Source: Eledone cirrhosa
Lineage: Eukaryota
Assembly: GCA_964016885.1 (NCBI GenBank)
Contig: OZ024740.1
Coordinates: 381,920,001-381,984,000, forward strand
DNA: 64,000 nucleotides
Reading direction: 5' to 3'
Position numbers and translations under genes: made by a program
Shown: one piece after another, positions 9,562-54,870 of the stretch
Numbering within the stretch: position 1 is the stretch's first letter
Layout of the letters: each line of letters starts with the position of its first letter
Notes under the pieces: model-generated
The model's input: the letters and a program-made list of their open reading frames with translations, nothing else
Database searches by the model: none
Told to the model about the DNA's origin: nothing

Positions 9562-9590
<29 letters not shown>

Positions 9591-9592
<2 letters not shown>

Positions 9593-10940
9593 CTATTAAT
9601 AATGAGTTCAAACCCCAGGCAGTCCTTTACAATGAAATAGCTCAAAGAAATATTTCCGAGCCGTGTAATACAAGTTAATATAAATGAATATATTTGATAA
9701 ATTTATATATTTGATGAATTAATATTTGATAAATTAATATATTTGATAAATTTATATTAACTTGTATTACACGGCTCGGAAATATTTCTTTGAGCTATTT
9801 CATTGTAAAGGACTGCCTGAGGTTTGAACTCATTATTAATAGTATCACTGCTCCTTACGTAGAGCTAAATTTAGCCCCATATAAACGGCTGTTATTTCTA
9901 GCAGCACGAGTATGGGGCAGCTAGACACTGGATAACCGTATGTGAAAAACCATGTGCGGTAAACAGTCTTTTTACATATTTTGAAGTGGAACATACCAAT
10001 TTTTCTGGCGCTTGCTGAGGAGATAGAAATGCGGTATTCTTCCACATTTTTCATTTTTCGAAACATATTTCGATTTTAAGGTTTAAACCTGTCTACGGAA
10101 CAGATTTGATTTTGAAATTTAAATTTGTCCAAGCACCCCGGCCATTTGCCAATATACTTTGATTTTATTGATTTATTATTTTAAATCAAGACAGGCAAAC
10201 TGTATTATTATAATTAGTATTTTTCAATCTAGCTAACTTTAGTCGTTTACAATACAAACACGGATATGTTGGTATTTGTGTTTATCAAATATATTAATTT
10301 ATATTAACTTGTATATATATATATATATACAAGTTAATATAAATTAATATATTTGATAAACACAAATACCAACATATCCGTGTTTGTATTGTAAACGACT
10401 AAAGTTAGCTAGAATGAAAAATACTAATTATAATAATACAGTTTGCCTGTCTCGATTTAAAATAATAAATCAATAAAATCAAAGCATATTGGCAAATGGC
10501 CGGGGTGCTTGAACAAATTTAAATTTCAAAATCAAATCTGTTCCGTAGACAGATTTAAACCTTAAAATCGAAATATGTTTCGAAAAATGAAAAATGTGGA
10601 AGAATACCGCATTTCTATCTCCTCAGCAAGCGCCAGAAAAATTGATATGTCCATTTCAAAATATGTAAAAAGACTGTTTAACGCACATGGTTTTTCACAT
10701 ACGGTTATCCAGTGTCTAGCTGCCCCATACTCGTGCTGCTAGAAATAACAGCCGTTTATATGGGGCTAAATTTAGCTCTACGTAAGGAGCAGTGATACTA
10801 TTAATAATGAGTTCAAACCTCAGGCAGTCCTTTACAATGAAATAGCTCAAAGAAATATTTCCGAGCCGTGTAATACAAGTTAATATAAATTTATCAAATA
10901 TATTAATTTATCAAATATTAATTTATCAAATATATAAATT
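9591..10940. repeat. Fold-back array of a 546-bp structured non-coding repeat (family X)
   Basis: Partial sense unit at 9591-9682, antisense unit at ~9750-10312, (TA)n centre at 10312-10329, sense unit at 10328-10890. The motif tacaagttaatata recurs at 10328 and 10874 (period 546). Confidence 0.9.
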
Positions 10941-10971
10941 TATATATATATATATATATATAAATATATAA

Positions 10972-11046
<75 letters not shown>

Positions 11047-11049
11047 TAG

Positions 11050-11584: not shown

Positions 11585-11590
<6 letters not shown>
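11050..11590 (-). mobile_element. PLE pseudo-LTR, family B, left arm of an inverted pair
   Basis: Reverse complement of ~13175-13716; carries an HHR. Confidence 0.8.
11053..11103 (-). ncRNA. Type I hammerhead ribozyme motif (family B)
   Basis: agattc-CTGATGA-tttataaagaat-GAAA-cag ttctagtc ctg-TA-gaatct; site GUA. Confidence 0.8.
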
Positions 11591-11635
<45 letters not shown>

Positions 11636-11814
11636 TATATATCTATATATATTGTTATACTTTGGGAGGGTCATGTTGCCAATAAGAAACACACGCACCA
11701 GTTGCTTTCACTTCAATTTATTATATATTTATAAATTTATAAATTTACAAATCTACAAACCTATAAATTTCTGGTTGGTTGGTTGGTTCCACAACCAGAT
11801 AGTTGTTTATATAT

Positions 11815-11859
11815 AGTCATAGTCCTTTTGTCACACACTCTGTGTCCTCTTCAGTGACT
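11815..11859 (-). ncRNA. Family A hammerhead motif, degenerate (GAAA changed to AAAA)
   Basis: agtca-CTGAAGA-G-gacaca gagtg tgtgac-AAAA-ggac-TA-tgact. Confidence 0.65.
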
Positions 11860-12063
11860 GGGGATTCCTTTCTTTGTTTCTGTGCCTTTGCTTTCTTCTG
11901 TCCTACGCCATTTTGTTTCTGTGTGTGTGTTGTGTGCTAAGTTTGCGCATGCGCCACATCCGGGTGTCTGTGTGTGTTTGTGTTCGTTTATCTATTTGTT
12001 TATTTATTTACATGTTGTTGGTTGGTTGTTTGTTCTATGTGTGTGTGTGTTTTCATTTTGTCC

Positions 12064-12735
12064 TTAATTGTAAGTTGTGATGTTGCTGTTCCACTCATAT
12101 TTTTTATTTAATTTTGGTTGTAATTCTTTTATGCTTACTGCCTCTGTAATTTGCCTAAACATTGCATCTTTTCTGTGTGTGGATTCTATGTTTATTTCTA
12201 TGTTCTCTAATTTACCCTTGTGTTCTATCTTAGCATGTTGGTAGAGTACAGATGATTCTTTATTATCTTGAAGGTCTCGCCAGTGTTCATTTATCCGTTC
12301 CCCTATACTACGAGCTGTCTCACCTATGTACACTATATTTTTGTTTCTACATTGTCCTTCAGTACATCTTATGCTATACACTACATTTCTAGTTTTACAG
12401 TTAATATGGGAGCTTATTTTACAGGTTATACATTTCTTATCTATACATGAGGGTCTTTGGAACGGGTATGTCTTGCTAATAAGTGTTTTTACGGAGGTAC
12501 CTGGTGTTTCTACTATCTTAATATTGAGTTTATGTTTATTTAGGGCCCTTCTAAATTTGTAGGCTAGTTCGCCTCTAGGGGTTGTATTGATGAACATTAC
12601 ACTCTGGTATTTATTGCTATCATACCATGAGTTTATTCTATTGGCCTTGTTCCTAGTTCTTTCTATTCTATTCCAAAATTTGCTCCTATACAAGGGGCAG
12701 GTCCCATTTATGTCATTATTGACCATTTTTCCCAT
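12064..12735 (-). CDS. PLE linker plus GIY-YIG endonuclease (truncated retroelement ORF)
   Basis: CIDKKCITC linker; NVVYSIRC..C..VYIGETARSIGERINEH; R..TEA..I...QPKLN. Confidence 0.9.
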   Translation of the reverse strand: MGKMVNNDINGTCPLYRSKFWNRIERTRNKANRINSWYDSNKYQSVMFINTTPRGELAYKFRRALNKHKLNIKIVETPGTSVKTLISKTYPFQRPSCIDKKCITCKISSHINCKTRNVVYSIRCTEGQCRNKNIVYIGETARSIGERINEHWRDLQDNKESSVLYQHAKIEHKGKLENIEINIESTHRKDAMFRQITEAVSIKELQPKLNKKYEWNSNITTYN

Positions 12736-13095
12736 TTGGTTCTGGCTCCTCTATACACTCTGATTCTATCTCTCTGATTGTAGCCAGAGAACTGCATACG
12801 GTGGATGAAGTGTTGTACCATGTCGTCACATGGTACCATGGGCCCAGCACTATGTGTCAATAATTGTCACAAGTGTAGTGTTTGTACCAGAGTTTTCAAC
12901 TGGCTGGACTAAAAAGTCACACTCGTTCAGCGCATCGGTAGGGGTTCTCCTACATGGATATAAAGTAGTGGCCGTACTCGAAAACGAGTTGGCAGCCACC
13001 ATATATATATATATATATATGTATGTGTATATATATATATATATATGTGTGTGTATGTGTGTGTATGTGTGTATATATACGTGTGTATATATATA

Positions 13096-14264: not shown

Positions 14265-14656
14265 CGTTTCTGAAATTGTTTAGCAAGATTCTTTATCTGA
14301 AATCGTGTGTTGAAACCGATATTTTAAATAAACAAATAAATAAATGAACAGAAACACACACAGACACCCGGATGTGGCGCATGCGCAGACTGAGCACTCA
14401 ACACACACACAGAAACAAAATGGCGTAGGACAGAACAAAGGAGAGGCACAGAAACAAAGAAAGGAATCCCCAGTCACTGAAGAGGTCACAGAGTGTGTGA
14501 CGAAAGAACTATGACAATATATAAACAACTATCTGGTTGTGGAACCAACCAAACAACCAAAAATTTATAAATTTATTATAAATTTATTATAATAAATTAA
14601 AGTGAAAGCAACTGGTGCGTGTGTTTCTTATTGGCAACATGATCCTCCCAAAGTAT

Positions 14657-14662
<6 letters not shown>
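14263..14662 (+). mobile_element. Solo family A pLTR preceded by an inverted copy of its terminal tail
   Basis: 14326-14662 matches the family A pLTR; 14263-14322 is the reverse complement of the tail at ~40397-40456. Confidence 0.85.
14473..14515 (+). ncRNA. Family A hammerhead motif
   Basis: gtca-CTGAAGA-G-gtcaca gagtg tgtgac-GAAA-gaac-TA-tgac. Confidence 0.8.
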
Positions 14663-14692
<30 letters not shown>

Positions 14693-14715
14693 ATATACAT
14701 ACATACATACATACA

Positions 14716-14750
<35 letters not shown>

Positions 14751-14880
14751 GCATGTAGATTTATATATATATAAATATTTGCTCTACAGTTCTTATACAT
14801 CTGATATATATTTATGCTTATCGAGCCCTCTTTGGAATTTAGTCTTCAAATTTATTATTGTTACTATATATATATATATG

Positions 14881-28374: not shown

Positions 28375-30505
28375 TCAAGGCGGTTGATTTATCGTAGGAG
28401 TGTCAATCCAGTTACAGATCAGATGCGATTTCAGATGAGGACAGCATCTGAAGATCTCAGTCTTAGAGTTAAGGCAAGCGGAAGTGTCTCTCAAGTTTAG
28501 CAAAATCCTATACTTTTCTGTGGTACACAAAGAACAATTCTTTGTGCCCCTTTGGTACTCCCTCGAATGGTCTAATATAGACCAATCAATAGAGTACGGG
28601 ATATTACTATCCTTGAGATCCCATACCTTACTTGCGAGGGCCGTTGATGTTCGTTTATCTGAGTGTTTAAAAGAAGCGACATGTGAGTAAAATCTGGTTT
28701 TAAACCTGTCCTGGGTCATACCGACATATCGCTCGCTTCTGGCTGGCTGGTTGTTGATAACTGGCGTTATTTTAGCCTCATAAACGACAGATTTTGTGTT
28801 ACATTTACCCTGCAATGGGCATTCATCCGGCTTCCTGCAACTGCATCCTGGATTTATCCTCGTACGGTTTGAACTGGTGATTTTGGACTTCATGGATGGG
28901 CAACAAGAGTAGCTGATATTAACTACATTCCTATTAAACATCTTATAATATCTATGAATAGGAGGAAAATGTTTGTCTAGTAGTTCAAGGAATTTCCTTC
29001 CTACATTAGTTTTGACATTTAGAGAGAAGGGGGGTGTGAACCAAATAATCTTCCTTTTCCTGTTATTATGGTTAGTTTTAGGGGGGAGTAGGTAAATAAG
29101 AAATATTTTCTGTAAAACCGCTGTTCTTAAGGGCTTTATTATAATAAGGGGCGGCTTTATTAAAAATGTCTATAGACGAAGATAAGGTAGAAATCCTACG
29201 GCTAATGTTAGGAATAAGATTATTAAAAACTATAGGGGGATGGCAAGACTCTTTGTGTATATACCTAAGATTTTCATTAGGTTTATGATAGGGTTTCAAA
29301 GAGGCAGTAAGTAGATCAAGATTAATATCAAGAAAGTTAGCATTAGTAAGGTTCGTATCTATAGTAATTTTAAGGTTAAGATTAGCAAAGGTACTAATTA
29401 AATCTTTACGGAATTTATCAAGATTATGGCCATTGGTGGTATGAGAAACTGCTAATCCGTCATCACGGTATAAACCGATATTATGGGACGGAAATTTCTC
29501 TTTGAGTGTGTGGAGAAGGAATAATCCTACTAAGTCGCACACATCCGCACTGTCATAAGAACCCATTGCAACATCGAAAGAGTTTTCAGGGTTTGACTTT
29601 TTAACCCAAATATTATCATTAGTAAAAAGTAAAGTTTTTCTGGCATGAAAGATAATGTCCTCTTCTAATTTGGAGATATTAATGAATGGTCTTGCAAAAT
29701 CTAAGGCTTTAGTTAATAAGGAAACAGTAATAGAAGGGTAAAAATCGACAATATCAAATTGCGTAAATCTACACTTATTTTTACCTTGTATATTATTGAA
29801 CCAAGAAATAACAGAGGAAGTATTTAGCCACTGTGAAAGGACAGTGTTAGTTCTAATTTGGAGAATTATTTTTCTTAAGATTTTCTTACTAGCAAGGCCA
29901 ACCTGGGATTTAGCCGGGTTAATCAGTCTACAACTAGGTCGATTAGTAAAGTCCAATTTATGGTCTTTAAGGGTAATATATGCTTTACGCTTAGCTAAGC
30001 TTTCAATCCGGTTATCTATTTGTAAAGAACTAGCTAGTTCTTTAGCTTCTTTATTGATAGTATTGTAGCTATTATTATTAGTTAATTGATATTTATTGGT
30101 AATACTATTAGTTAAAAGTTGGTTATACAAATTACTATTAACTTCAAAGAGGTTTTTGGTTTTATCAGAAAGAACGAAAGTGTTTGTAGAATTTCTAAAA
30201 TTAGAGATATCGTGAGAAAGTTTAGTTTGAAAATTATTATTGTACTTACGAAATTTGATATCACTAATTAGATTAACGAGGTCTAATTCGAAGTTGGCCA
30301 TGTCTTTAATTCTAGGTGGATATTTACGGGATTTAATGTCAAAATTATCTTTAGTATCAGCACTGAATAGTCCATCGTAAACCATTGCCTTCCATCTCAT
30401 TCTTTTAACGACTTGCTCGATTTTATCAATGAGGATTTTGGTGTATGTTGTGTTGGAAGGAGTGGGTATGTTTTTGATAGAATAATCCAAATCATAAAGG
30501 TCCAT
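28375..30505 (-). CDS. PLE polyprotein: reverse transcriptase plus GIY-YIG endonuclease (709 aa if one extra C at 29081-29086 is removed)
   Basis: RT motifs CRLINPAKS, FDIVDFYPSI, AMGSYDSA, GLYRDDGL, FLDINL and YHKP. The shifted frame continues PKTNHNNRKRKIIWFTPPFSLNVKTNVGRKFLELLDKHFP into CSCRKPDECPLQGKC, VVYEAK..YVGMT..RFYSH, CSLC..E and LN..E...CPH. The span is 2131 nt = 710 codons + 1. Confidence 0.92.
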
Positions 30506-30767
30506 GGTGTATGTTGGTTAAATTCCTGAAAACTGTAGAGGGCTCAACTAATCGGGCTGGAAAGTGCCAATCGTATATGTAATATCGAATATGCTGCGAT
30601 CAATCCCGGTTGGAGCTGTATAAATGAAGTAATTCCATCGGAAAAGTCCAGGAAAAAAGAGTGCTTTATGTATGCAACAGAGCTTAATTATTATATATTT
30701 TAATTATTATATATTTAATTATTATATATTTTTATATATTTAATTATTATATATTTTTATATTTTTG

Positions 30768-31723: not shown

Positions 31724-34715
31724 AAAAAAGTCAATCTGTGAACGCAGAAGTAAATATTTCAAAATACGTTGCAACCGAAGGAAGACAGGAAGACGATACT
31801 TTGGTTCGTGGAAACGTTCCCTGGCAAGGAACGGAAAGGAAATGAAGATAATATGTAATTATTTGGTGCGGTGAAAACAATTACACGCAAAGACAAAACC
31901 ACGTTTATGGTATAAATGAAATCGTAGACTCTAATTCTATTTAAAATGCTATCGGCTTCTGAGTTAAGAATAAAGTAAATAAAATACGGAGGTAATTGAA
32001 ATTAAATATATACATACACGCATCTATATACGTACATACACCATCATACTCGAAAACACTCGCCATGGCTATGCAAATACAAGCACGTACCCCCCCCCCC
32101 CCAAAAAAAAAAAGACACGCACGCATAAATAGAACCCAGGCAACGCCTGTACCCGCACACATACGAACGTATACACCAAATACACATAAAAATATATATA
32201 AATATATATATATATGTGTGTGTGTGTGCGTGTATACATAATTAAATAAACGTATATAAATATACCCACATAAATACGTATATTACGCGCGTACACACAT
32301 ACCTACATGTAAATACACATATGTTCGCGGACGTACGTCAGCTATAACACAACGTACACCTACACACACCCTACATTCGTACGAACCCGCATACTCACGC
32401 AGACGCAAAACTCACGTATACACATAACCAAACGCACATGTACAAGTATATATAATATATATGCCATAACATATACATGCAAATATACGTACGAGAAAGT
32501 ATACGTACCTTCACAAAACATACATATAATATATACTTACCTATACAAATAAGTAATGGTATAAACATAACATATACTTAGCTACCACATCAAGACGTAA
32601 AATATCCGCGTATAGTTCGTACTATCCGCTAGGGTATAATGTGGGGCTGTAATACAGGAAAGTGTTGTGCAATTTATGTTTACAAGCCGAAATTGCCTCA
32701 ATCTTTTTGTTTAAGATGTGGTCTTTGGCGCAGAGTATTTTCAGGGCTACAGCGGCACAGAGGTCACATGGTCTTTTATTTCCGTTATACGATCTAGCCT
32801 TAGCTAGGATCTCTCAGTGTAACTTATATTGGGTGTGGTTGTCTATTAGACTCCAGATATAAGCTGAAAGTGACGTCATATTCCTTCTTAAAGGGTTAAG
32901 AAAAGAATGGGTATGCATGTAAAGACGCTGCTTGAATCTGTTGGCGGTTAACCTTATATAGGCCCTACGGGACGTGGGTGTTTCAACCTTACATTTGTAG
33001 ACAATGTTACTAGAGAGGCATTTCCCGGATAGGGAGCAGTCATCCCGATTCCTATAATTACAGTTAGTACTAGCTACAGGGTTGCACGTGTTCCTACGGC
33101 TAGGTAATTTAGCTAAATTTGAAGCTGTGATGTTATGTGCAAGGTTAGGAGTCGTAGAGTAAGAAATTTTCATGGTATTTCTATTAAAAATGTTACTATA
33201 TTTATGTGCTGGGGGAAATGCTTAAGGGAGAGGAAGATCTTAGCTAATGGTGTGGCCACCTCCATATTTTATGGTGGGTTATACCATACAATGCGTCGGG
33301 ATCTATTTTTGCTAGGTCTATTCTTGTACTCCGTATAAGCTACCTTATTGACAAATCCACTCCGAGCAAGAGCTTCATTGTAATATGTGGAATGGCGGTT
33401 GAAAATATGCTCGTTTATAGATAGACGGGAAAGCCTCAAAGAAACGTTTCTTACCAGGTTCTTGGTTATGCTGGCAGGATTGTTAGAATGCTTACTTATG
33501 TAATTAAGCGTATCATTCGGCTTCCTATAAGGGTAGTGCAAGCCATTCGACAAGTTGAGGGTAACGTCGAGGTAATTAACGACCAAGAGGTTGGCCTCAA
33601 CCTTTATGGAGAGGTTGGAGCCTTTAAAGAAGGCTGTGAGTTCTTTTCTGAACCTGTCGCAAGCACGTGGACCGCACTTTCATGGTTAAAAGCCCGTCAT
33701 CACGGTACAAACCAACGCCCACGTTGGAGAAGACAGAACCACGTTTATGGTATAAATGAAGTCGTAGACTAATATTCTATTAGGTGGTTCATGGAGACAT
33801 TCTCTGGCAATGAACGGAAAAAAACGAAGGATAATACGTCATTATGTGCAGCGATGAGAACAATTATACGCAAAGACAAAACCACGTAAATGGAATAACT
33901 GAAGTCGTAGACTAAAATTCTATTCAGGAAACCAAATGATTCTCGGCTTTAGAGTTAAGAATAAAGTAAATAAAATACAGAGGTAATTGAAATTAAATAT
34001 ATACATACACGCATCCATATACGTACATACACAAGCATACGCGAAAACACTCGCCATGGGTATGCACATACAAGAACGTACACCCCCCCCCCAATAAAAA
34101 AACACGCATGCACAACCAGAACCGATGCAACGCCTGTACCCGCACACATACGAACTTGTACAGGAAATACACATACAAATATATATAAACAATAAATATA
34201 TATATGTGTGTGTGTGCGTGTATACATAATTAAATAAACGTATATAAATATAACACATAAATACGTATATAACGCGCGCACACACATTTCAATTACCTCT
34301 GTATTTTATTTACTTTATTCTAACTCTGAAGCCGAGAATCATTCGGTTTCCTAAATAGAATTTTAGTCTACGACTTCAGCTATACCATTTACGTGGTTTT
34401 GTCTTTGCGTGTAATTGTTCTATCGTTCCACATAATGACGTTTTATCTTCGTTTTTTTTTCGTTCATTGCCAGATAACGTTTTCATTGACCACCTAATAG
34501 AATATTAGTCTACAACTTCATTTATACCATAAACGCAGCTCTGTCTTTTTCGTGTAATTGTTTTCACCGCACCAGATAATGGGGTATTATCTTCGTTTTT
34601 TTTTCTGTTTTTTGCCAGGGAACGTTTCCACGAACCAAAGTATCGTCTTGCTCTCTTCCTTCGGTTGCAACGTCTTTTGAAATATTTACTTCTACGTTCA
34701 CAGATTGCATTGTTT

Positions 34716-35610: not shown

Positions 35611-35641
<31 letters not shown>

Positions 35642-35853
35642 TTCGTTTCTGAATTTGTTTAGCAAGATTCTTTATCTCAAAACGTGTGTTGAAACCGATA
35701 TTGTTATGCTTTGGGAGGGTCATGTTGTCAATGAGAAACACACGCACCAGTTGCTTTCACTCCAATTTATTATAAATTAAATTTATAAATTTAAGAATTT
35801 ATAAATTTCCAGTTGGTTGGTTGGTTCCATAACCGGACGGTTATTCATATATT

Positions 35854-35896
35854 GTCAAAGTTCTTTCGTCACACATTATGTGACCTCTTCAGTTAC
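35854..35896 (-). ncRNA. Family A hammerhead motif (diverged)
   Basis: gtaa-CTGAAGA-G-gtcaca taatg tgtgac-GAAA-gaac-TT-tgac. Confidence 0.7.
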
Positions 35897-36141
35897 TGGG
35901 ATTCTTTTCTTTGTTTTTGTGCCTCTTCTTTGTTCTGTCCTACGCCATCTTGTTTTTGTGTGTGTTGCGTGCTTAGTTTGCGCATGCGTTACATCCGGGT
36001 GTCTGTGTGTGTTTATAATTTTATTTATTTGTTTATTTACATGTTACTGGTTGTTGTTTGTTCTATGTGTGCGTGTGTTTTCATTTTGTCCTTAATTGTA
36101 AGTTGTGATGTTGCTATTCCATTCCTGTTTTCTATTTAATT

Positions 36142-37290
36142 TTGGTTAAACTTAAAGAACAATTAGAATACAGCAACCTCCTAACCCTGATAATATACTC
36201 CCGCTACGTTGATGATATAAACATCATAGTAAAAACACCCCCACTAGAGAACAGTCAGCAATTAGAGAAAAACACCATGGAAAGCATCCTGCAAATAGCT
36301 AACTCCATCCACCAGAGTATTAGAGTTACTATAGACTCCCAAATCAAACACCCTAACTATCGATTACCTGTACTAGACACAGATGTCTGGTTAGAAACCA
36401 TTAATAACAAAAAACAAATCCCCCATTCCCATTATGCCAAACCAATAACTTCCAAATATCTGATCCACCGAAACTCAGCTGTTTCGGACCACACTAAAAT
36501 CAACATACTGATTGCTGATTTGGTACGGGTGATGAGAAACGTATCCCGCATGTGCAACCCCCAAAAACTAGAGAGATTCATACAACACTTCATCCACCGT
36601 ATGCAGTTTTCTGGTTACAGTCAGAGAGATAAAATCAGAGTATATAGAGGAGCCAGAACCAAATGGGAAAAAATGGGATCTGCCCCTTGTATAGGACCAA
36701 ATTTTGGAATAGAATAGAAAGAACTAGGAATAAGGTTAATAGAATAAAGTCATGGTATGATAGCAATAAATACCAGAGTGTAAAGTTCATCAATACAACT
36801 CCTAGAGGTGAATTAGCTTACACATTTAGAAGAGCCCTAGATAAACATAAACTTAATATTAAGATAGTAGAAAGGCCAGATACCTCCATAAAAACACTTT
36901 TCAATGACTTCCCTGTATAGATAAGAAATGCATAATCTATAAACTAAGCCCCCATATTAACTGTAAAACTAGAAATGTAGTATATAGCATAAGATGTACT
37001 GAAGGACAATGTAAAGATAAGAATATAGTGTACATAGGTGAGGCAGTTAGTAGTATAGGAGAACGGTTCAATGAACATTGGAGAGAACTTCAAGATAAAA
37101 AAGAATGATCAATACTCCACCAACATGCTAAAATAGAACATAAGGGCAAATTAGAGAACATAGAAATAAAAATAGAATCTACACACAGAAAAGACGCAAT
37201 GTTTAAACAAATCACAGAGGCAATAAATATAAATGAACTCCAAACAAAATTAAATAGAAAACATGAATGGAATAGCAACATCACAACTTA
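36142..37290 (+). pseudogene. PLE RT palm/thumb plus GIY-YIG, frameshifted
   Basis: ORFs 36142-36717 and 36663-36920, plus a downstream NVVYSIRC..VYIGE frame with a stop. Confidence 0.85.
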
Positions 37291-37495
37291 CAATTAAGGA
37301 CAAAATGAAAACACACACACACATAGTACAACCAACAAACCAGTAACATGTAAATAAACAAATAAATAACCAAATATAAACACACACAGACACCCGGATG
37401 TAACACATGCGCAAACTAAGCACGCAACACACACAAAAACAAGATGGCGTAGGACAGAACCAGGGAGAGGCTCAAAAACAAAGAAAAGGATCCCA

Positions 37496-37538
37496 ATCAC
37501 TGAAGAGGTCACATAATGTGTGACGAAAGAACTTTGAC
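37496..37538 (+). ncRNA. Family A hammerhead motif (diverged)
   Basis: atca-CTGAAGA-G-gtcaca taatg tgtgac-GAAA-gaac-TT-tgac. Confidence 0.7.
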
Positions 37539-37679
37539 AATATATGAACAACCGTCCGGTTATGGACCCAACCAACTGGAAATTTATAAATTCTTAAATT
37601 TATGAATTTAATTTATAATAAATTGGAGTGAAAGCATGGTGCGTGTGTTTCTCAATGGCAACATGACCCTCCTAAAGTA

Positions 37680-37763
<84 letters not shown>

Positions 37764-37928
37764 TATTGTTATACTTTGGGAGGGTCATGTTGCCAATAAG
37801 AAACACACGCACCAGTTGCTTTCACTTCAATTTATTATATATTTATAAATTTATAAATTTACAAATCTACAAACTTATAAATTTCTGGTTGGTTGGTTGG
37901 TTCCACAACCAGATAGTTGTTTATATAT

Positions 37929-37973
37929 AGTCATAGTCCTTTCGTCACACACTCTGTGACCTCTTCAGTGACT
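37929..37973 (-). ncRNA. Family A hammerhead motif
   Basis: agtca-CTGAAGA-G-gtcaca gagtg tgtgac-GAAA-ggac-TA-tgact. Confidence 0.82.
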
Positions 37974-38237
37974 GGGGATTCCTTTCTTTATTTCTGTGCC
38001 TTTCCTTTCTTCTGTCCTACGCCATTTTGTTTCTGTGTGTGTGTTGTGTGCTCAGTTTGCGCATGCGCCACATCCGGGTGTCTGTGTGTGTTTGTGTTCA
38101 TTTATCTATTTGTTTATTTATTTACATGTTGTTGGTTGGTTGTTTGTTCTATGTGTGTGTGTGTTTTCATTTTGTCCTTAATTGTAAGTTGTGATGTTGC
38201 TGTTCCACTCATATTTTCTATTTAATTTTGGCTGTAA

Positions 38238-39068
38238 TTATTTTATGCTTACTGCCTCTGTAATTTGCCTAAACATTGCATCTTTTCTGTGTGTGGATTC
38301 TATTTTTATTTCAATGTTCTCTAATTTACCCTTGTGTTCTATCTTAGCATGTTGGTAGAGTACAGATGATTCTTTATTATTTTGAAGGTCTCGCCAGTGT
38401 TCATTTATCCGTTCCCCTATACTACGAGCTGTCTCACCTATGTACACTATATTTTTGTTTCTACATTGTCCTTCAGTACATCTTATACTATACACTACAT
38501 TTCTAGTTTTACAGTTAATATGGGGGCTTATTTTACAGGTTATACATTTCTTATCTATACATGAGGGTCTTTGGAACGGGTATGTCTTGCTAATAAGTGT
38601 TTTTACGGAGGTACCTGGTCTTTCTACTATCTTAATATTGAGTTTATGTTTATTTAGGGCCCTTCTAAATTTGTAGGCTAGTTCGCCTCTAGGGGTTGTA
38701 TTGATGAACATTACACTCTGGTATTTTTGGCTATCATACCATGAGTTTATTCTATTGGCCTTGTTCCTAGTTCTTTCTATTCTATTCCAAAATTTGCTCC
38801 TATACAAGGGGCAGGTCCCATTTATGTCATTATTTACCATTTTTTCCCATTTGGTTCTGGCTCCTCTATACACTCTGATTCTATCTCTCTGATTGTAGCC
38901 AGAGAACTGCATACGGTGGATGAAGTGTTGTATGTGTCTCTCTAGTTCTTCGGGGTTGCACATGCGGGACACATTTCTCATCACCCGTACCAAATCCGCA
39001 ATCAGTATGTTGATATTGTTATGGTCCGAAATGGCCGAGTTTCGGTGGATCAGATGTTTGGAAGTCAT
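38238..39068 (-). CDS. Truncated PLE thumb/linker/GIY-YIG ORF (left arm)
   Basis: Same protein as 12064-12735, extended N-terminally, with a premature stop after EAVSIK. Confidence 0.85.
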   Translation of the reverse strand: MTSKHLIHRNSAISDHNNINILIADLVRVMRNVSRMCNPEELERHIQHFIHRMQFSGYNQRDRIRVYRGARTKWEKMVNNDINGTCPLYRSKFWNRIERTRNKANRINSWYDSQKYQSVMFINTTPRGELAYKFRRALNKHKLNIKIVERPGTSVKTLISKTYPFQRPSCIDKKCITCKISPHINCKTRNVVYSIRCTEGQCRNKNIVYIGETARSIGERINEHWRDLQNNKESSVLYQHAKIEHKGKLENIEIKIESTHRKDAMFRQITEAVSIK

Positions 39069-39095
39069 GATGTTTGGAGGTCATGTTTGGAAGTC

Positions 39096-39925
39096 ATGAC
39101 TTCCAAACATCTGATCCACCGAAACTCGGCCATTTCGGACCATACCAAAATCAACATACTGATTGCGGATTTGGTACGGGTGATGAGAAATGTGTCCCGC
39201 ATGTGCAACCCCGAAGAACTAGAGAGACACATACAACACTTCATCCACCGTATGCAGTTCTCTGGCTACAATCAGAGAGATAGAATCAGAGTGTATAGAG
39301 GAGCCAGAACCAAATGGGAAAAAATGGTAAATAATGACATAAATGGGACCTGCCCCTTGTACAGGAGCAAATTTTGGAATAGAATAGAAAGAACTAGGAA
39401 CAAGGCCAATAGAATAAACTCATGGTATGATAGCAATAAATACCAGAGTGTAATGTTTATCAATACAACCCCTAGAGGCGAACTAGCCTACAAATTTAGA
39501 AGGGCCCTAAATAAACATAAACTCAATATTAAGATAGTAGAAACACCAGGTACCTCCGTAAAAACACTTATTAGCAAGACATACCCGTTCAAAGACCCTC
39601 ATGTATAGATAAGGAATGTATAACCTGTAAAATAAGCCCCCATATTAACTGTAAAACTAGAAATGTAGTGTATAGCATAAGATGTACTGAAGGACAATGT
39701 AGAAACAAAAATATAGTGTACATAGGTGAGACAGCTCGTAGTATAGGGGAACGGATAAATGAACACTGGCGATACCTTCAAGATAATAAAGAATCATCTG
39801 TACTCTACCAACATGCTAAGATAGAACACAAGGGTAAATTAGAGAACATAGAAATAAAAATAGAATCCACACACAGAAAAGATGCAATGTTTAGGCAAAT
39901 TACAGAGGCAGTAAGCATAAAATAA
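39096..39925 (+). pseudogene. Truncated PLE thumb/linker/GIY-YIG ORF (right arm, 1-bp deletion near 39590)
   Basis: ORFs 39021-39608 and 39668-39925 are the two halves; same premature stop as the left arm. Confidence 0.85.
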
Positions 39926-40189
39926 TTACAGCCAAAATTAAATAGAAAATATGAGTGGAACAGCAACATCACAACTTAAAATTAAGGACAAAATGAAAAC
40001 ACACACACACATAGAACAAACAACCAACCAACAACATGTAAATAAATAAACAAATAGATAAATGAACACAAACACACACAGACACCCGGATGTGGCACAT
40101 GCGCAAACTGAGCACACAACACACACACAGAAACAAAATGGCGTAGGACAGAAGAAAGGAAAGGCACAGAAACAAAAGAAGGAATCCCC

Positions 40190-40234
40190 AGTCACTGAAG
40201 AGGTCACAGAGTGTGTGACGAAAGGACTATGACT
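40190..40234 (+). ncRNA. Family A hammerhead motif
   Basis: agtca-CTGAAGA-G-gtcaca gagtg tgtgac-GAAA-ggac-TA-tgact. Confidence 0.82.
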
Positions 40235-40463
40235 ATATATAAACAACTATCTGGTTGTGGAACCAACCAACCAACCAGAAACTTATAAGTTTGTAGATTT
40301 GTAAATTTATAAATTTATAAATATATCATAAATTGAAGTGAAAGCAACTGGTGCGTGTGTTTCTTATTGGCAACATGACCCTCCCAAAGTATAACAATAT
40401 CGGTTTCAACACAGATTTCAGATAAATAATCTTGCTAAACAAATTCAGAAACGAAATACATAA

Positions 40464-40570
<107 letters not shown>

Positions 40571-40710
40571 AAGATTAAACAAGTTTCAATGAATAAATCA
40601 AAGAATGAGTTTTACAATAGATTGGAATCACTCAACAATTATGGTTTTCCGGAGTTATTAATATTAATTCAAAATATTAACAAAAGTAGACATTCGTGTG
40701 ATCAAGTATA

Positions 40711-40773
40711 TTTTATTATACATATTTAAGAGGTACTGAGCTAACTTCAACAGTACGTCCTCATCAGATAAAA
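40711..40773 (-). ncRNA. Family D hammerhead motif, GAAA changed to TAAA
   Basis: Reverse complement of 40878-40940 with a G12 substitution. Confidence 0.65.
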
Positions 40774-40877
40774 TAAGATGATGCATGACATACCCTGACA
40801 TAGTAGATGATTAAGATTCACTACCATGACTGAATCTTAACCATCTACTATATCAGGGTATGTAATGCATCATCTTA

Positions 40878-40940
40878 TTTTATCTGATGAGGACGTATTG
40901 TTGAAGTTAGCTCAGTACCTCTGAAATATGTATAATAAAA
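40878..40940 (+). ncRNA. Family D hammerhead motif
   Basis: ttttat-CTGATGA-ggac gtattg..cagtac ctct-GAAA-tatgta-TA-ataaaa. Confidence 0.8.
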
Positions 40941-41989
40941 TATACTTGATCACCCGAATGTCTATTTTTGTTAATATTTTGAATTAATATATATATACAT
41001 ATATATTAGAAAGTGACTTTTTTTTACAAAATGAAAAAAAAACGAAATGTCCTACACGAGTGAAAGTATAAGGAAAAAAGATGAAATCGAAAATGCAACT
41101 GGAGTCTTTTTTTTAAAATATATATGTATTTGGTTCCTTTACCGGTTTCGCAGTTCTTATGATTTACAAAAGTAGAATTGAGATGGAGGGTTTGCGGTTT
41201 TTCTCGCATCTCGTTGGTGTTCGAATGTTACTTCTGTTTTATATGGAAAACGTGGCTCGAAATAGGTTTTGATACTAAGAACAATATTAAAATCTTTGAC
41301 ATCAATCTTGTATTAGCTGAATTGTATTGATCTAGTATTAGTACAGGTTAAAACCAATGTTAAGATGAAAATTATTATCTAAAAAAAGAAAGATTATTAA
41401 GAATCAGACGATTCTGTGGTGAAGGTGTGATTTTCTGAGAGGAATAGATATATTTCGAAAAGAGTTAACTGCACCGGTTTAAAAACTAAAAAACAATAGC
41501 GACTTATTATTTTGGCAAAGTGCCATGTGTTATATGACACCAGAAGTGTCACTACAGACATAGCGCAGTTTAATGAAAGTGTCGTTTGAAGTTCAACTTT
41601 TTTTTTTGTTTGATTCTTCTCAATTTGTCATAAGTTATTTCATTAGACTATTTAACAAATATAAAATTAATTGTTTCTAGTTGACGTCCTAGAGTGTATA
41701 TTTCTTTCTGTTATTAATTTTGAAAATTTGGCTCTAATTTTCTGATAATGTTCTAACTGAATGAATATACTTCTTTATAAACCTCAGATATGATAAAATG
41801 CAAAACCTGTACGGATTAGAACTTGAGGTTATACACCAGTTATTCCAGCAATTAAACAGCTCTGTAAATGCATCACATTCTGAATACTATGCTCCAAAAT
41901 ACAATATATAAATAGTTTCAAAGGAGCTTCGCAGCACCTCTTCAATATTTCACACGAAAAGAAACTATTTCTTATCATCCAACCTGTCT

Positions 41990-43077: not shown

Positions 43078-43255
43078 ACATATATATACGTATATATATA
43101 TATACATATATGTATATATATATATATAAATATATGTGTGTGTCTGTGTATATATACATATATGTATATACATGTATGTATTTATATATATATGTATATA
43201 TATATATATAACCTATACATATATAAGTGGTTACACAACAGTTAGTTCGCCATAC

Positions 43256-43293
43256 CGAGAACAATTGTTTCACCTTAGCGGATCCTCAGCTCG
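43256..43293 (-). ncRNA. Minimal type I hammerhead motif (38 nt)
   Basis: cgag-CTGAGGA-t cc gctaa gg t-GAAA-caattg-TT-ctcg; helix III is palindromic. Confidence 0.78.
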
Positions 43294-43341
<48 letters not shown>

Positions 43342-43346
<5 letters not shown>

Positions 43347-43457
43347 AAAAAGTATGACCCCGACGGCAGAGCTCAAGTCGTTTAGACGGCTATTTCTGGA
43401 CAGAAATACTTGTCGAAACGGCTTGAGCGCTGCCGTCGGGGTCAAACTTGTTCCTAT
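43342..43457. repeat. 116-bp GC-rich near-perfect inverted repeat: fold-back truncated inside a hammerhead
   Basis: gaccccgacggcagagctcaagtcgttt / aaacggcttgagcgctgccgtcggggtc. The right arm carries GAAA-cggc..gccg-TC at 43415-43437. Confidence 0.85.
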
Positions 43458-43532: not shown

Positions 43533-45002
43533 GATTAAAAATTAGCTCTACAGTTAAGGAGCAATAATATTATATTATATTTAGAGTTTAAACTCAAAGT
43601 CATTTACAATTAATCAGCTCAAAGAAAGAAGTATTTCCGAGCAGTGAAATACAAGTTAATATATATTAATATATGATATATGATAAACACATACGTGTTT
43701 GTATTGTAAGAGACAAAGTTAGCTAGAATGAAATAAACTAATTAAAATGAATACAATTTGTCTGTCTCGATATAAGTCAATAAATACAAGCTTATATTGG
43801 CAAAAGTCGTGATTCCTGGACAAATTTAAATTTCAAAATGCAAACCTGCTCCGTAGATGAATTTGAACTGCGAAACCTAAATATGTTTCGCAGCGATGGT
43901 ATAACAATTGAAATATAAAAAGTGAAATATTCAAATCTTCTGTGCTTATCAACATGGATCCAGTAAAATTAGTACATTTCACCTCCAAAAATTTTGCAGG
44001 ACTGATTTACACGTGGTATAACCAGCTATACTAGCCATCCCGTACTCCCGGTGCTAGAAATAACAGCCGTTTATATGGGATTAAAAATTAGCTCTACAGT
44101 TAAGGAGCAATAATATTATATTATATTTAGAGTTTAAACTCAAAGTCATTTACAATTAATCAGCTCAAAGAAAGAAGCATTTCCGAGCAGTAAAACACAG
44201 GTTAATATATATTAATATATGATAAACACATACGTGTTTGTATTGTAAGAGACAAAGTTAGCTAGAATGAAATAAACTAATTAAAATGAATACAATTTGT
44301 CTGTCTCGATTATTTCATTCTAGCTAACTTTGTCTCTTACAATACAAACACGTATGTGTTTATCATATATTAACATATATTAACTTGTATTTCACTGCTC
44401 GGAAATGCTTCTTTCTTTGAGCTGATTAATTGTAAATGACTTTGAGTTTAAACTCTAAATATAATATAATATTATTGCTCCTTAACTGTAGAGCTAATTT
44501 TTAATCCCATATAAACGGCTGTTATTTCTAGCACCGGGAGTATGGGATGGCTAGTATAGCTGGTTATACCACGTGTAAATCAGTCCTGCAAAATTTTTGG
44601 AGGTGAAATGTACTAATTTTACTGGATTCCTGTTGATAAGCACAGAAGATTTGAATATTTCACTTTTTATATTTCAATTTTCATACCATCGTTACGAAAC
44701 ATATTTAGGTTTCGAAGTTCAAATTCATCTACGGAGCAGGTTTGGATTTTGAAATTCAAATTTGTCCAGGAATCACGGCTTTTGCCAATATAAGCTTGTC
44801 TTTATTGACTTATATCGAGACAGACAAATTGTATTCATTTTAATTAGTTTATTTCATTCTAGCTAACTTTGTCTCTTACAATACAAACACGTATGTGTTT
44901 ATCATATATTAATATATATTAACTTGTATTTCACTGCTCGGAAATGCTTCTTTCTTTGAGCTGATTAATTGTAAATGACTTTGAGTTTAAACTCTAAATA
45001 TA

Positions 45003-45010
<8 letters not shown>
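43533..45010. repeat. Tandem plus fold-back array of the structured repeat (family Y, homologous to family X)
   Basis: Forward arm 43533-44310 (period 546) and reverse arm 44311-45010 (period 539). Shares tgctagaaataacagccgtttatatggg and other blocks with 10328-10890. Confidence 0.9.
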
Positions 45011-45035
<25 letters not shown>

Positions 45036-45040
<5 letters not shown>

Positions 45041-45360
45041 TTCAAAATATTAACAAAAAATAGACATTCATGTGATCAAGTATATTTTATTATACATATT
45101 TCAGAGGTACTGAGCAATCTACAACATACGTCCTCAGATAAAATAAGATGATGCATGACATACCCTGACATAGTAGATGGTTAAGATAGCTCAGTACCTC
45201 TGAAATATGTATAATAAAATATACTTGATCACACGAATATCTATTTTTTGTTAATATTTGGAATTAATATTAATAACTCCGGAAAACCATAACTGTTGAG
45301 TGCTTCCAATCTATTGTAAAAATCATTCGTTGATTTATTCATTGAACCTTGTTTAACCTT

Positions 45361-45364
<4 letters not shown>
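45036..45364. mobile_element. Second family D fold-back element
   Basis: Homologous to 40566-40990; inversion point near 45187. Confidence 0.85.
45085..45143 (-). ncRNA. Family D hammerhead motif; a 3-nt deletion recreates CTGAGGA
   Basis: ttttat-CTGAGGA-cgtatg..cagtacctct-GAAA-tatgta-TA-ataaaa. Confidence 0.6.
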
Positions 45365-45431
<67 letters not shown>

Positions 45432-45437
<6 letters not shown>

Positions 45438-53916: not shown

Positions 53917-54391
<475 letters not shown>

Positions 54392-54435
54392 AAGTTAAAT
54401 AAAAGTCAAATGATTAAAATTTAGCTTCGTTTATT

Positions 54436-54490
54436 ACTGCTATATATATTTCAGTGACAGCCATCTGTGGCTGTGACCTCTTCAGGCAGT
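54436..54490 (-). ncRNA. Family E hammerhead motif
   Basis: actgc-CTGAAGA-ggtc acagcca caga tggctgt cact-GAAA-tatata-TA-gcagt, followed by AATAAA. Confidence 0.85.
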
Positions 54491-54651
54491 TTGAATTAAT
54501 GTGGTATAGGCAAGTAAATATGTTGTTTAGGTGTATAATATTGGAGTTCCTCAGTGAAATAACAACCCAACAAGGAACTGGGCATATCAGAGTATTGACA
54601 ATATTATACACCTAAACAACATATGTACTTGTCTATACCATACTAATTCAA

Positions 54652-54706
54652 ACTGCCTGAAGAGGTCACAGACAAAGATGGCTGTCACTGAAATATATAT
54701 AGCAGT
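54652..54706 (+). ncRNA. Family E hammerhead motif
   Basis: actgc-CTGAAGA-ggtcacag..ctgtcact-GAAA-tatata-TA-gcagt, followed by AATAAA. Confidence 0.82.
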
Positions 54707-54870
54707 AATAAACGAAGCTAAATTTTAATCATTTGACTTTTATTTAACTTTATTTTACACTACTCCGGGGTAACCAAACCAACCTTCACACTTCGTCGAG
54801 TGCTCCAGCCTGCATACTGAGGTGTTGGTATACAACCAACATAAACTCAAAATATCTCTCTCTATATATA

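Follow-up and report, generated by a model that had tools for sequence, protein, structure and literature searches.

How a repeat without coding capacity comes to be copied, and whether this calls for a new kind of catalytic RNA, is the question raised by two related loci in the 64-kb stretch of DNA analysed here (the window), which is AT-rich and rich in microsatellites. Judging from the likeness of its repeats and, by eye, of one ORF (29078-30517) to a cephalopod-type Penelope-like protein, Hydra-1_Obim, the window is probably of cephalopod origin. A preliminary description had read the repeat as an ORF-less, structured element that lacks a hammerhead and relies on an undescribed fold. We find a hammerhead motif on the opposite strand. 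With a probability of roughly 0.78, the two loci represent two subfamilies, X and Y, of an ORF-less repeat with an expanded type I hammerhead, a non-autonomous retrozyme-like element moved by Penelope-like elements (PLEs).

The repeat of about 546 nt and its division into two diverged families are real. The period is 546/547 nt in X and 546/539 nt in Y (range 539-547 bp), and X (9591-10940) and Y (43533-45011) share approximately 70% identity end to end across the unit (E ~1e-60). X comprises three segments, one of about 110 nt (S1) and two of one unit each (S2 and S3), and Y comprises two, of 1.4 (Y1) and 1.3 (Y2) units. All segments with full copies are only 1.0-1.4 units long and carry one hammerhead motif apiece. 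The tandem and fold-back arrangement next to (TA)n had been recognized correctly: tandem junctions are seen in four of the five segments, the fold-backs span 9675-10964 in X (97.5% identity) and 43567-45011 in Y (95.2%), and (TA)n is present at both loci. The unit has a low GC content and, as previously stated, no ORF, the longest stop-free run in any frame of a tandem trimer being 58 codons. Since it closes on itself without an ORF, it is non-autonomous. The segments and their surroundings are:

9564-9592: (TA)n microsatellite bordering locus X on the left, the likely target
9591-9701, minus strand: X segment S1, short copy of about 110 nt that stops at (TA)n at a unit position common with Y2
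9680-9757: repeats of an AT-rich 17-mer where S1 meets the inverted S2
9745-10311, plus strand: X segment S2, full 547-nt unit and about 20 nt more; the hammerhead strand is plus
10312-10329: (TA)n in the centre of locus X, separating the mirror copies S2 and S3
10330-10940, minus strand: X segment S3, full 546-nt unit with an AT-rich start; the hammerhead strand is minus
10930-11048: (TA)n bordering locus X on the right
43533-44310, minus strand: Y segment Y1, a head-to-tail array of 1.4 units
43533-43566, minus strand: 34-bp extension (tail) of Y1 past the terminus used by Y2
44311-45011, plus strand: Y segment Y2, 1.3 units, inverted relative to Y1 and terminating in (TA)n
44998-45037: (TA)n bordering locus Y on the right

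On the strand opposite to that of the preliminary description, which reported no conserved hammerhead core, a type I core occupies aligned columns in all four full copies. The motif runs in the order stem I, core CUGAGGA (X) or UUGAUAA (Y), GAAA, helix III, GUC and stem I. In X, CUGAGGA precedes G and a spacer of 38 nt whose last base is C; GAAA, a helix III of 66 nt and GUC come next. Y has UUGAUAA, with 56 nt in the spacer and 67 nt in helix III, and is otherwise as X. The core, GAAA, G10.1-C11.1, A15.1-U16.1 and the NUH triplet fall in identical alignment columns in the four copies, and positions 3 and 8 switch jointly from C:G in X to U:A in Y. Such U3:A8 covariation is reported for natural hammerheads, and as active in vitro (PMC3088659, in section 8), and also for Schistosoma PLEs (PMC4209133).

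The cleavage triplet is GUC in three of the four full copies and GUU in S3. Stem I has 5 contiguous base pairs in the X copies (9 with the bases found in the majority of reads) and 8 in Y2, and is damaged in Y1. G10.1-C11.1, which would close stem II, is invariantly G-C; the base of stem II has just 1-3 bp and is not favoured in folding. The whole motif spans 125-145 nt, and its parts are located as follows:

10006-10138, plus strand: hammerhead of S2, type I, predicted cut after 10129
10006-10014/10130-10138, plus strand: stem I of S2
10015-10021, plus strand: core CUGAGGA of S2, followed by the stem II spacer (10022-10059) and GAAA (10060-10063)
10063-10128, plus strand: helix III of S2, with GUC at 10127-10129
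10503-10635, minus strand: hammerhead of S3, with the core at 10626-10620, GAAA at 10581-10578 and the triplet GUU at 10514-10512
43961-43810, minus strand: hammerhead of Y1, with the core UUGAUAA at 43952-43946, GUC at 43821-43819 and a mutated stem I
44624-44775, plus strand: hammerhead of Y2, with the core UUGAUAA at 44633-44639, GAAA at 44696-44699, GUC at 44764-44766 and an 8-bp stem I

The motif was overlooked because the two halves of its core are 38-56 nt apart and helix III is 66-67 nt long, and also because the other strand had been modelled and the Y core is a U3:A8 variant. Neighbouring Penelope-like hammerheads in the window have a helix III of 6-8 nt.

A loose hammerhead descriptor matches three of the four full copies, on the hammerhead strand only; Y1 escapes it because its stem I is mutated. 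Shuffled controls gave any match in 6/1000 (X) and 1/1000 (Y) cases, and in 0/1000 when G10.1-C11.1 and GUC were required, rates that are indicative given that the descriptor was written after the motif had been seen. In the whole window, these three copies are the only matches with a long helix III. Rfam yields no match in the window at the gathering score, and three and two chance-level matches at E ≤ 10. A tRNA-derived SINE is not indicated, as ARAGORN finds no tRNA gene and Rfam no tRNA-like head, searches that degenerate heads may evade. By eye, the unit shows no fit to the consensus of HDV-like, twister or pistol ribozymes. Exact pattern scans of viral contigs, metagenome contigs and prokaryote genomes returned no match.

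We regard it as very probable that the motif of X and Y is a hammerhead by descent and under selection for pairing. Self-cleavage would likely occur after GUC, and we would on balance expect family-typical copies to cleave themselves in vitro.

Public reads bear on the pairing. Four runs were mapped on S2, with unphased reads and 40 of 147 differences listed. Organism A contributes 519 contigs and 2111 reads matching S2, which cover all 29 bins, and organisms B and C contribute 3 and 4 partial contigs. The repeat is a high-copy animal repeat with many related copies, and two read joints, going back 475 and 499 bases, fit a tandem continuation in other subfamilies.

Among the 40 of 147 differences listed, 12 in run X10 fall on pairs of stems I and III. 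Five of these create a pair where the window copy has a mismatch (56/56, 155/160, 306/322, 325/343 and 28/156 reads), four of them near fixation (95-100% of reads), and four others preserve a pair. The remaining three break a pair unless the partner changes too, and the partners are absent from the 40 of 147 rows listed. The 17 core positions show no difference among the same 40 of 147, a weak result since approximately one would be expected.

Folding energies point to the same strand. For the hammerhead strand, the RNA folding z is -7.4 (X) and -5.5 (Y), compared with -3.5 and -3.1 for the strand modelled previously; treated as DNA, X scores -3.2 and -2.5 on its two strands. As X and Y fold far better as RNA on one strand, the structure looks like RNA of that strand. 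The earlier view of a structured, ORF-less, non-autonomous element that is probably RNA-mediated, Penelope-like in its insertion layout and possibly self-cleaving finds support. The need for an undescribed catalytic fold disappears with the hammerhead. Covariation is not significant (50/500 and 83/500 shuffles reach the scores), in an alignment of four rows that really represent two families.

Folding models, which ignore pseudoknots and core contacts, speak against activity: in isolated motifs they place the active fold 6.7-13.2 kcal/mol above the ensemble. With the same kind of models, the probability of G10.1-C11.1 is near zero in all four circular monomers, and that of stem I is 0-0.12 in three and high in just one, where the stem is well formed.

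Upstream of the hammerhead, a segment of the 5′ flank may contact the loop of stem II:

9986-9991, plus strand: segment of the 5′ flank, the predicted partner of loop II (10040-10045)

This segment sits about 30 nt upstream of the core and can form six Watson-Crick pairs with the stem II loop. The helix occupies aligned columns in three of the four copies, with one change of G-C to A-U, and is damaged in S3. None of 71 other windows offers more than 4 bp, and 4 of 2000 column shuffles reach 6. The base at 10046 is missing in 53/67 reads, a loss that would, by eye, extend the helix. The predicted pairing possibly braces the hammerhead as a pseudoknot, and sections 7-8 of PMC3088659 describe fast hammerheads that combine stems II of 1-2 bp with a pseudoknot. 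The flank could instead lock the core, for its duplex with the spacer can run along most of the stem II spacer, to about -15 kcal/mol.

This second possibility leads to the most serious alternative, in which the hammerhead was inherited from a PLE terminal repeat and is now inactive or normally locked off, its core trapped by the flank, and the uncut RNA moves by virtue of its structure. Besides the stability of the flank-spacer duplex, it would account for an active fold that lies some 7-13 kcal/mol uphill, and there are precedents: eight of nine Xenopus retrozymes were tested without cleavage (10.64898/2026.07.22.740005), and metazoan PLE hammerheads are described as poor cleavers in vitro (PMC4209133). 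Against it stand the 3:8 swap and GUC, retained across families 30% apart, the near-fixed read differences that repair stems I and III, and the known speed of hammerheads with the short pseudoknotted stems II just mentioned. We consider a locked hammerhead unlikely, if still a contender.

Under the preferred reading of a retrozyme-like element with a working hammerhead, the unit would be transcribed on the hammerhead strand. Cleavage would likely follow GUC, and one motif on its own would suffice for it, given the length and stability of helix III; the predicted pairing of loop II with the 5′ flank may act as a brace. The resulting monomers would then be ligated into circles. Their insertion into (TA)n would fall to the reverse transcriptase/GIY-YIG endonuclease of a Penelope-like element, which would run past a single unit length as it copies and so leave behind partial tandems, truncated copies in inverted orientation and a tail. 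Similar routes have been proposed for PLEs and retrozymes (PMC4209133, PMC7229834 section 14 and 10.64898/2026.07.22.740005).

The insertions themselves have the layout of PLEs, as the preliminary description had supposed. S1 and Y2 abut (TA)n at one common unit position, and S2 and S3 stop about 110 nt earlier in the unit, flanking the central (TA)n; two different unit termini adjoin (TA)n, a point that counts against the preferred reading. Y1 extends 34 bp beyond the common terminus, into unique DNA, a tail seen once. Section 6 of PMC8557442 gives the PLE layout as a partial tandem, an inverted truncated copy, a tail of 30-40 bp and a preference for TA, and X and Y show a partial tandem, an inverted truncated copy, the 34-bp tail and a microsatellite target. 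Penelope-type mobilisation of X and Y is likely.

Neither X nor Y is an autonomous PLE, as with at most 58 stop-free codons they have no ORF for a reverse transcriptase and a GIY-YIG endonuclease, and no autonomous element that shares an end with the unit is found within the window. A link to Naiad elements, which had been suggested as a check, did not emerge from the supplement of PMC8557442: eight short motifs of the unit have no occurrence in its accessible text, where line breaks may hide matches, and the 3′ regions of three Octopus Naiad consensus sequences given there bear no likeness to the unit by eye.

The traits of retrozymes are present, namely the absence of coding capacity, low GC and a type I hammerhead in the unit. 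Li et al. 2026 (10.64898/2026.07.22.740005) ask of non-LTR retrozymes a minimum of two units in a row, each of which holds a complete hammerhead. At loci X and Y, with 1.0-1.4 units per segment, no two such consecutive units exist, and we therefore call the element retrozyme-like and not a member of the non-LTR retrozymes.

Tandem junctions in four of five segments could also be those of a satellite or minisatellite derived from a PLE terminal repeat and spread by DNA recombination, its structure being a leftover, a route that is discussed in 10.64898/2026.07.22.740005. Against this origin, which we hold to be improbable, the segments are short (1.0-1.4 units) and lie at dispersed loci, X and Y have a common terminus at (TA)n, and there are the 34-bp tail and a strand-specific G-U pairing. 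Even less probable is a derivative of a DNA transposon, of the MITE or Helitron/Helentron type, with hairpins that act in single-stranded DNA. Long inverted repeats and TA flanks would suit it, but the inversions are whole-unit fold-backs whose breakpoints differ between X and Y, and not fixed terminal repeats; moreover, folding as RNA shows a far larger advantage and strand asymmetry than folding as DNA, and a hammerhead core is present.

The helices on which the preliminary description was built are partly sound. Its main helix forms a hairpin, here called H, around an invariant block:

9874-9918, plus strand: hairpin H of S2, with TATAAA at 9880-9885
10722-10766, minus strand: hairpin H of S3

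The helix gccccata/tatggggc (10722/10759) of X does change to atcccgta/tatgggat (44037/44074) in Y by two compensatory pairs. The additional G-U pair described for Y is present in one of the two full Y copies, against A-U in its counterpart; read on the hammerhead strand, the variant becomes an A-C mismatch. The 28-nt interior of H is invariant between X and Y. At its paired positions, 9877 C>T and 9915 G>A occur at similar rates in the unphased reads. Both gctc/gagc stems and aaacac/gtgttt occur in X and Y as described. The stem cgaaa/tttcg is the GAAA box of the hammerhead read backwards, with a partner that differs between the families and, in X, a partner base (10071) that differs in 306/322 reads. 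Because its partner is not shared, and because G-U is found in one of two Y copies, neither this stem nor the G-U pair was kept as a family feature.

That hairpin H is the centre of a new catalytic fold in an element without a hammerhead, as first proposed, is the least probable reading of all: the two compensatory pairs, the invariant interior, the paired read differences at similar but unphased rates and the lack of an Rfam match favour it, yet the hammerhead core in four of four full copies makes a new catalyst unnecessary, and H, which gives no sign of catalysis, could be a promoter or a protein-binding site. In the invariant block, TATAAA is found on the hammerhead strand at 9880-9885 (+) and 44510-44515 (+), and may represent an internal promoter. 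H may serve as a promoter, or as a site of recognition by reverse transcriptase or of protein binding.

Metazoan non-LTR retrozymes are among the closest known systems. As described in PMC7229834 and 10.64898/2026.07.22.740005, they share with X and Y a self-paired unit of low GC that lacks an ORF and holds a single type I hammerhead, as well as head-to-tail junctions and co-occurrence with PLEs. Their units measure 170-400 nt (Cervera and de la Pena 2020, PMC7229834) or 51-972 bp (10.64898/2026.07.22.740005), compared with 546 nt in X and Y. In contrast to the retrozymes of these accounts, X and Y have partial tandems only and fold-back insertions at (TA)n, a helix III of 66-67 nt instead of 1-2 bp, and a stem II spacer of 38-56 nt.

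The hammerheads of PLE terminal repeats in PMC4209133 are alike in their type I topology, in G10.1-C11.1 and in U3:A8 (Schistosoma Cercyon). The same text gives fungal and protist PLEs a large helix III, as in X and Y, and cleavage as monomers, whereas animal PLE hammerheads have a minimal or palindromic helix III, unlike the ORF-less, animal-type X and Y. The pseudoknotted hammerheads of Perreault et al. 2011 (PMC3088659) resemble ours in the very short base of stem II and in the U3:A8 covariation. There, the contact between the stem II loop and the stem I flank is paired, whereas in X and Y it is only predicted, and the motif of X and Y measures 125-145 nt and lies inside a repeated eukaryotic retroelement-like unit. 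Chlamys MRC1 and the Naiad/Hydra layout, as given in PMC8557442, likewise combine partial tandems, an inverted truncated copy, a tail of 30-40 bp and a microsatellite target. In that account, non-autonomous Chlamys elements have their 3′ ends in common with an autonomous family, a sequence link that we did not find for X and Y.

Each odd feature of X and Y thus has a precedent alone; we found no report in the open-licence literature of their combination in an animal retrozyme-like element. While the claim of a new catalytic fold falls, a blind spot is exposed, as Rfam and short-spacer descriptors miss this hammerhead. If the element cuts as a monomer, it would break with the reliance on dimers that is usual for the hammerheads of animal PLEs.

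In File S1 of PMC8557442, eight Naiad families are marked HHR_half_core, with core halves 35-50 nt apart, a spacing that is seen in X and Y as well. X and Y might be the first representatives of a class of hammerheads in animal PLEs that has stayed hidden from Rfam and short-spacer descriptors, being oversized, braced by a pseudoknot and active as monomers. Such a class would explain these Naiad families, and elements reported to lack hammerheads would in fact carry them; we put this forward as a speculative and rather doubtful extension. X and Y offer a direct test of whether "hammerhead-less" PLE clades have merely been under-searched.

Other elements of the window are PLE-like. A Penelope-like family with a GIY-YIG-like ORF forms fold-backs at (TA)n in the manner of X and Y (11587-12817, 36445-40517, 14325-14778, 35614-36147 and 53949-54330). 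It carries hammerhead motifs with a short helix III at 14477 (+), 40195 (+), 37968 (-) and 54252 (-), and has two alternative TA ends, since copies can run on for about 57 nt beyond the usual end. PLE-like ORFs at 28375-30517 (-) and 32814-33679 (-) resemble the Hydra clade by eye and are RT-like by Atlas features, and the ORF at 29078-30517 resembles by eye the Hydra-1_Obim protein. Among eight neighbouring ORFs searched against Pfam, one matched, to RVT_1.

A third fold-back repeat at (TA)n, adjoining Y, is found at 40498-41006, 45018-45433 and 13937 (-), and its type I hammerhead motif has an 8-nt helix III and a spacer of 28-32 nt. A fold-back pair of hammerhead motifs with a palindromic helix III lies at 54385-54757 (54657 on the plus and 54485 on the minus strand), and a regular-expression scan points to further hammerhead-like cores at 43220-43295 (-) and 6575 (-). 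Just left of Y, a 116-bp imperfect palindrome (43342-43457) is MITE-like and unrelated to the unit.
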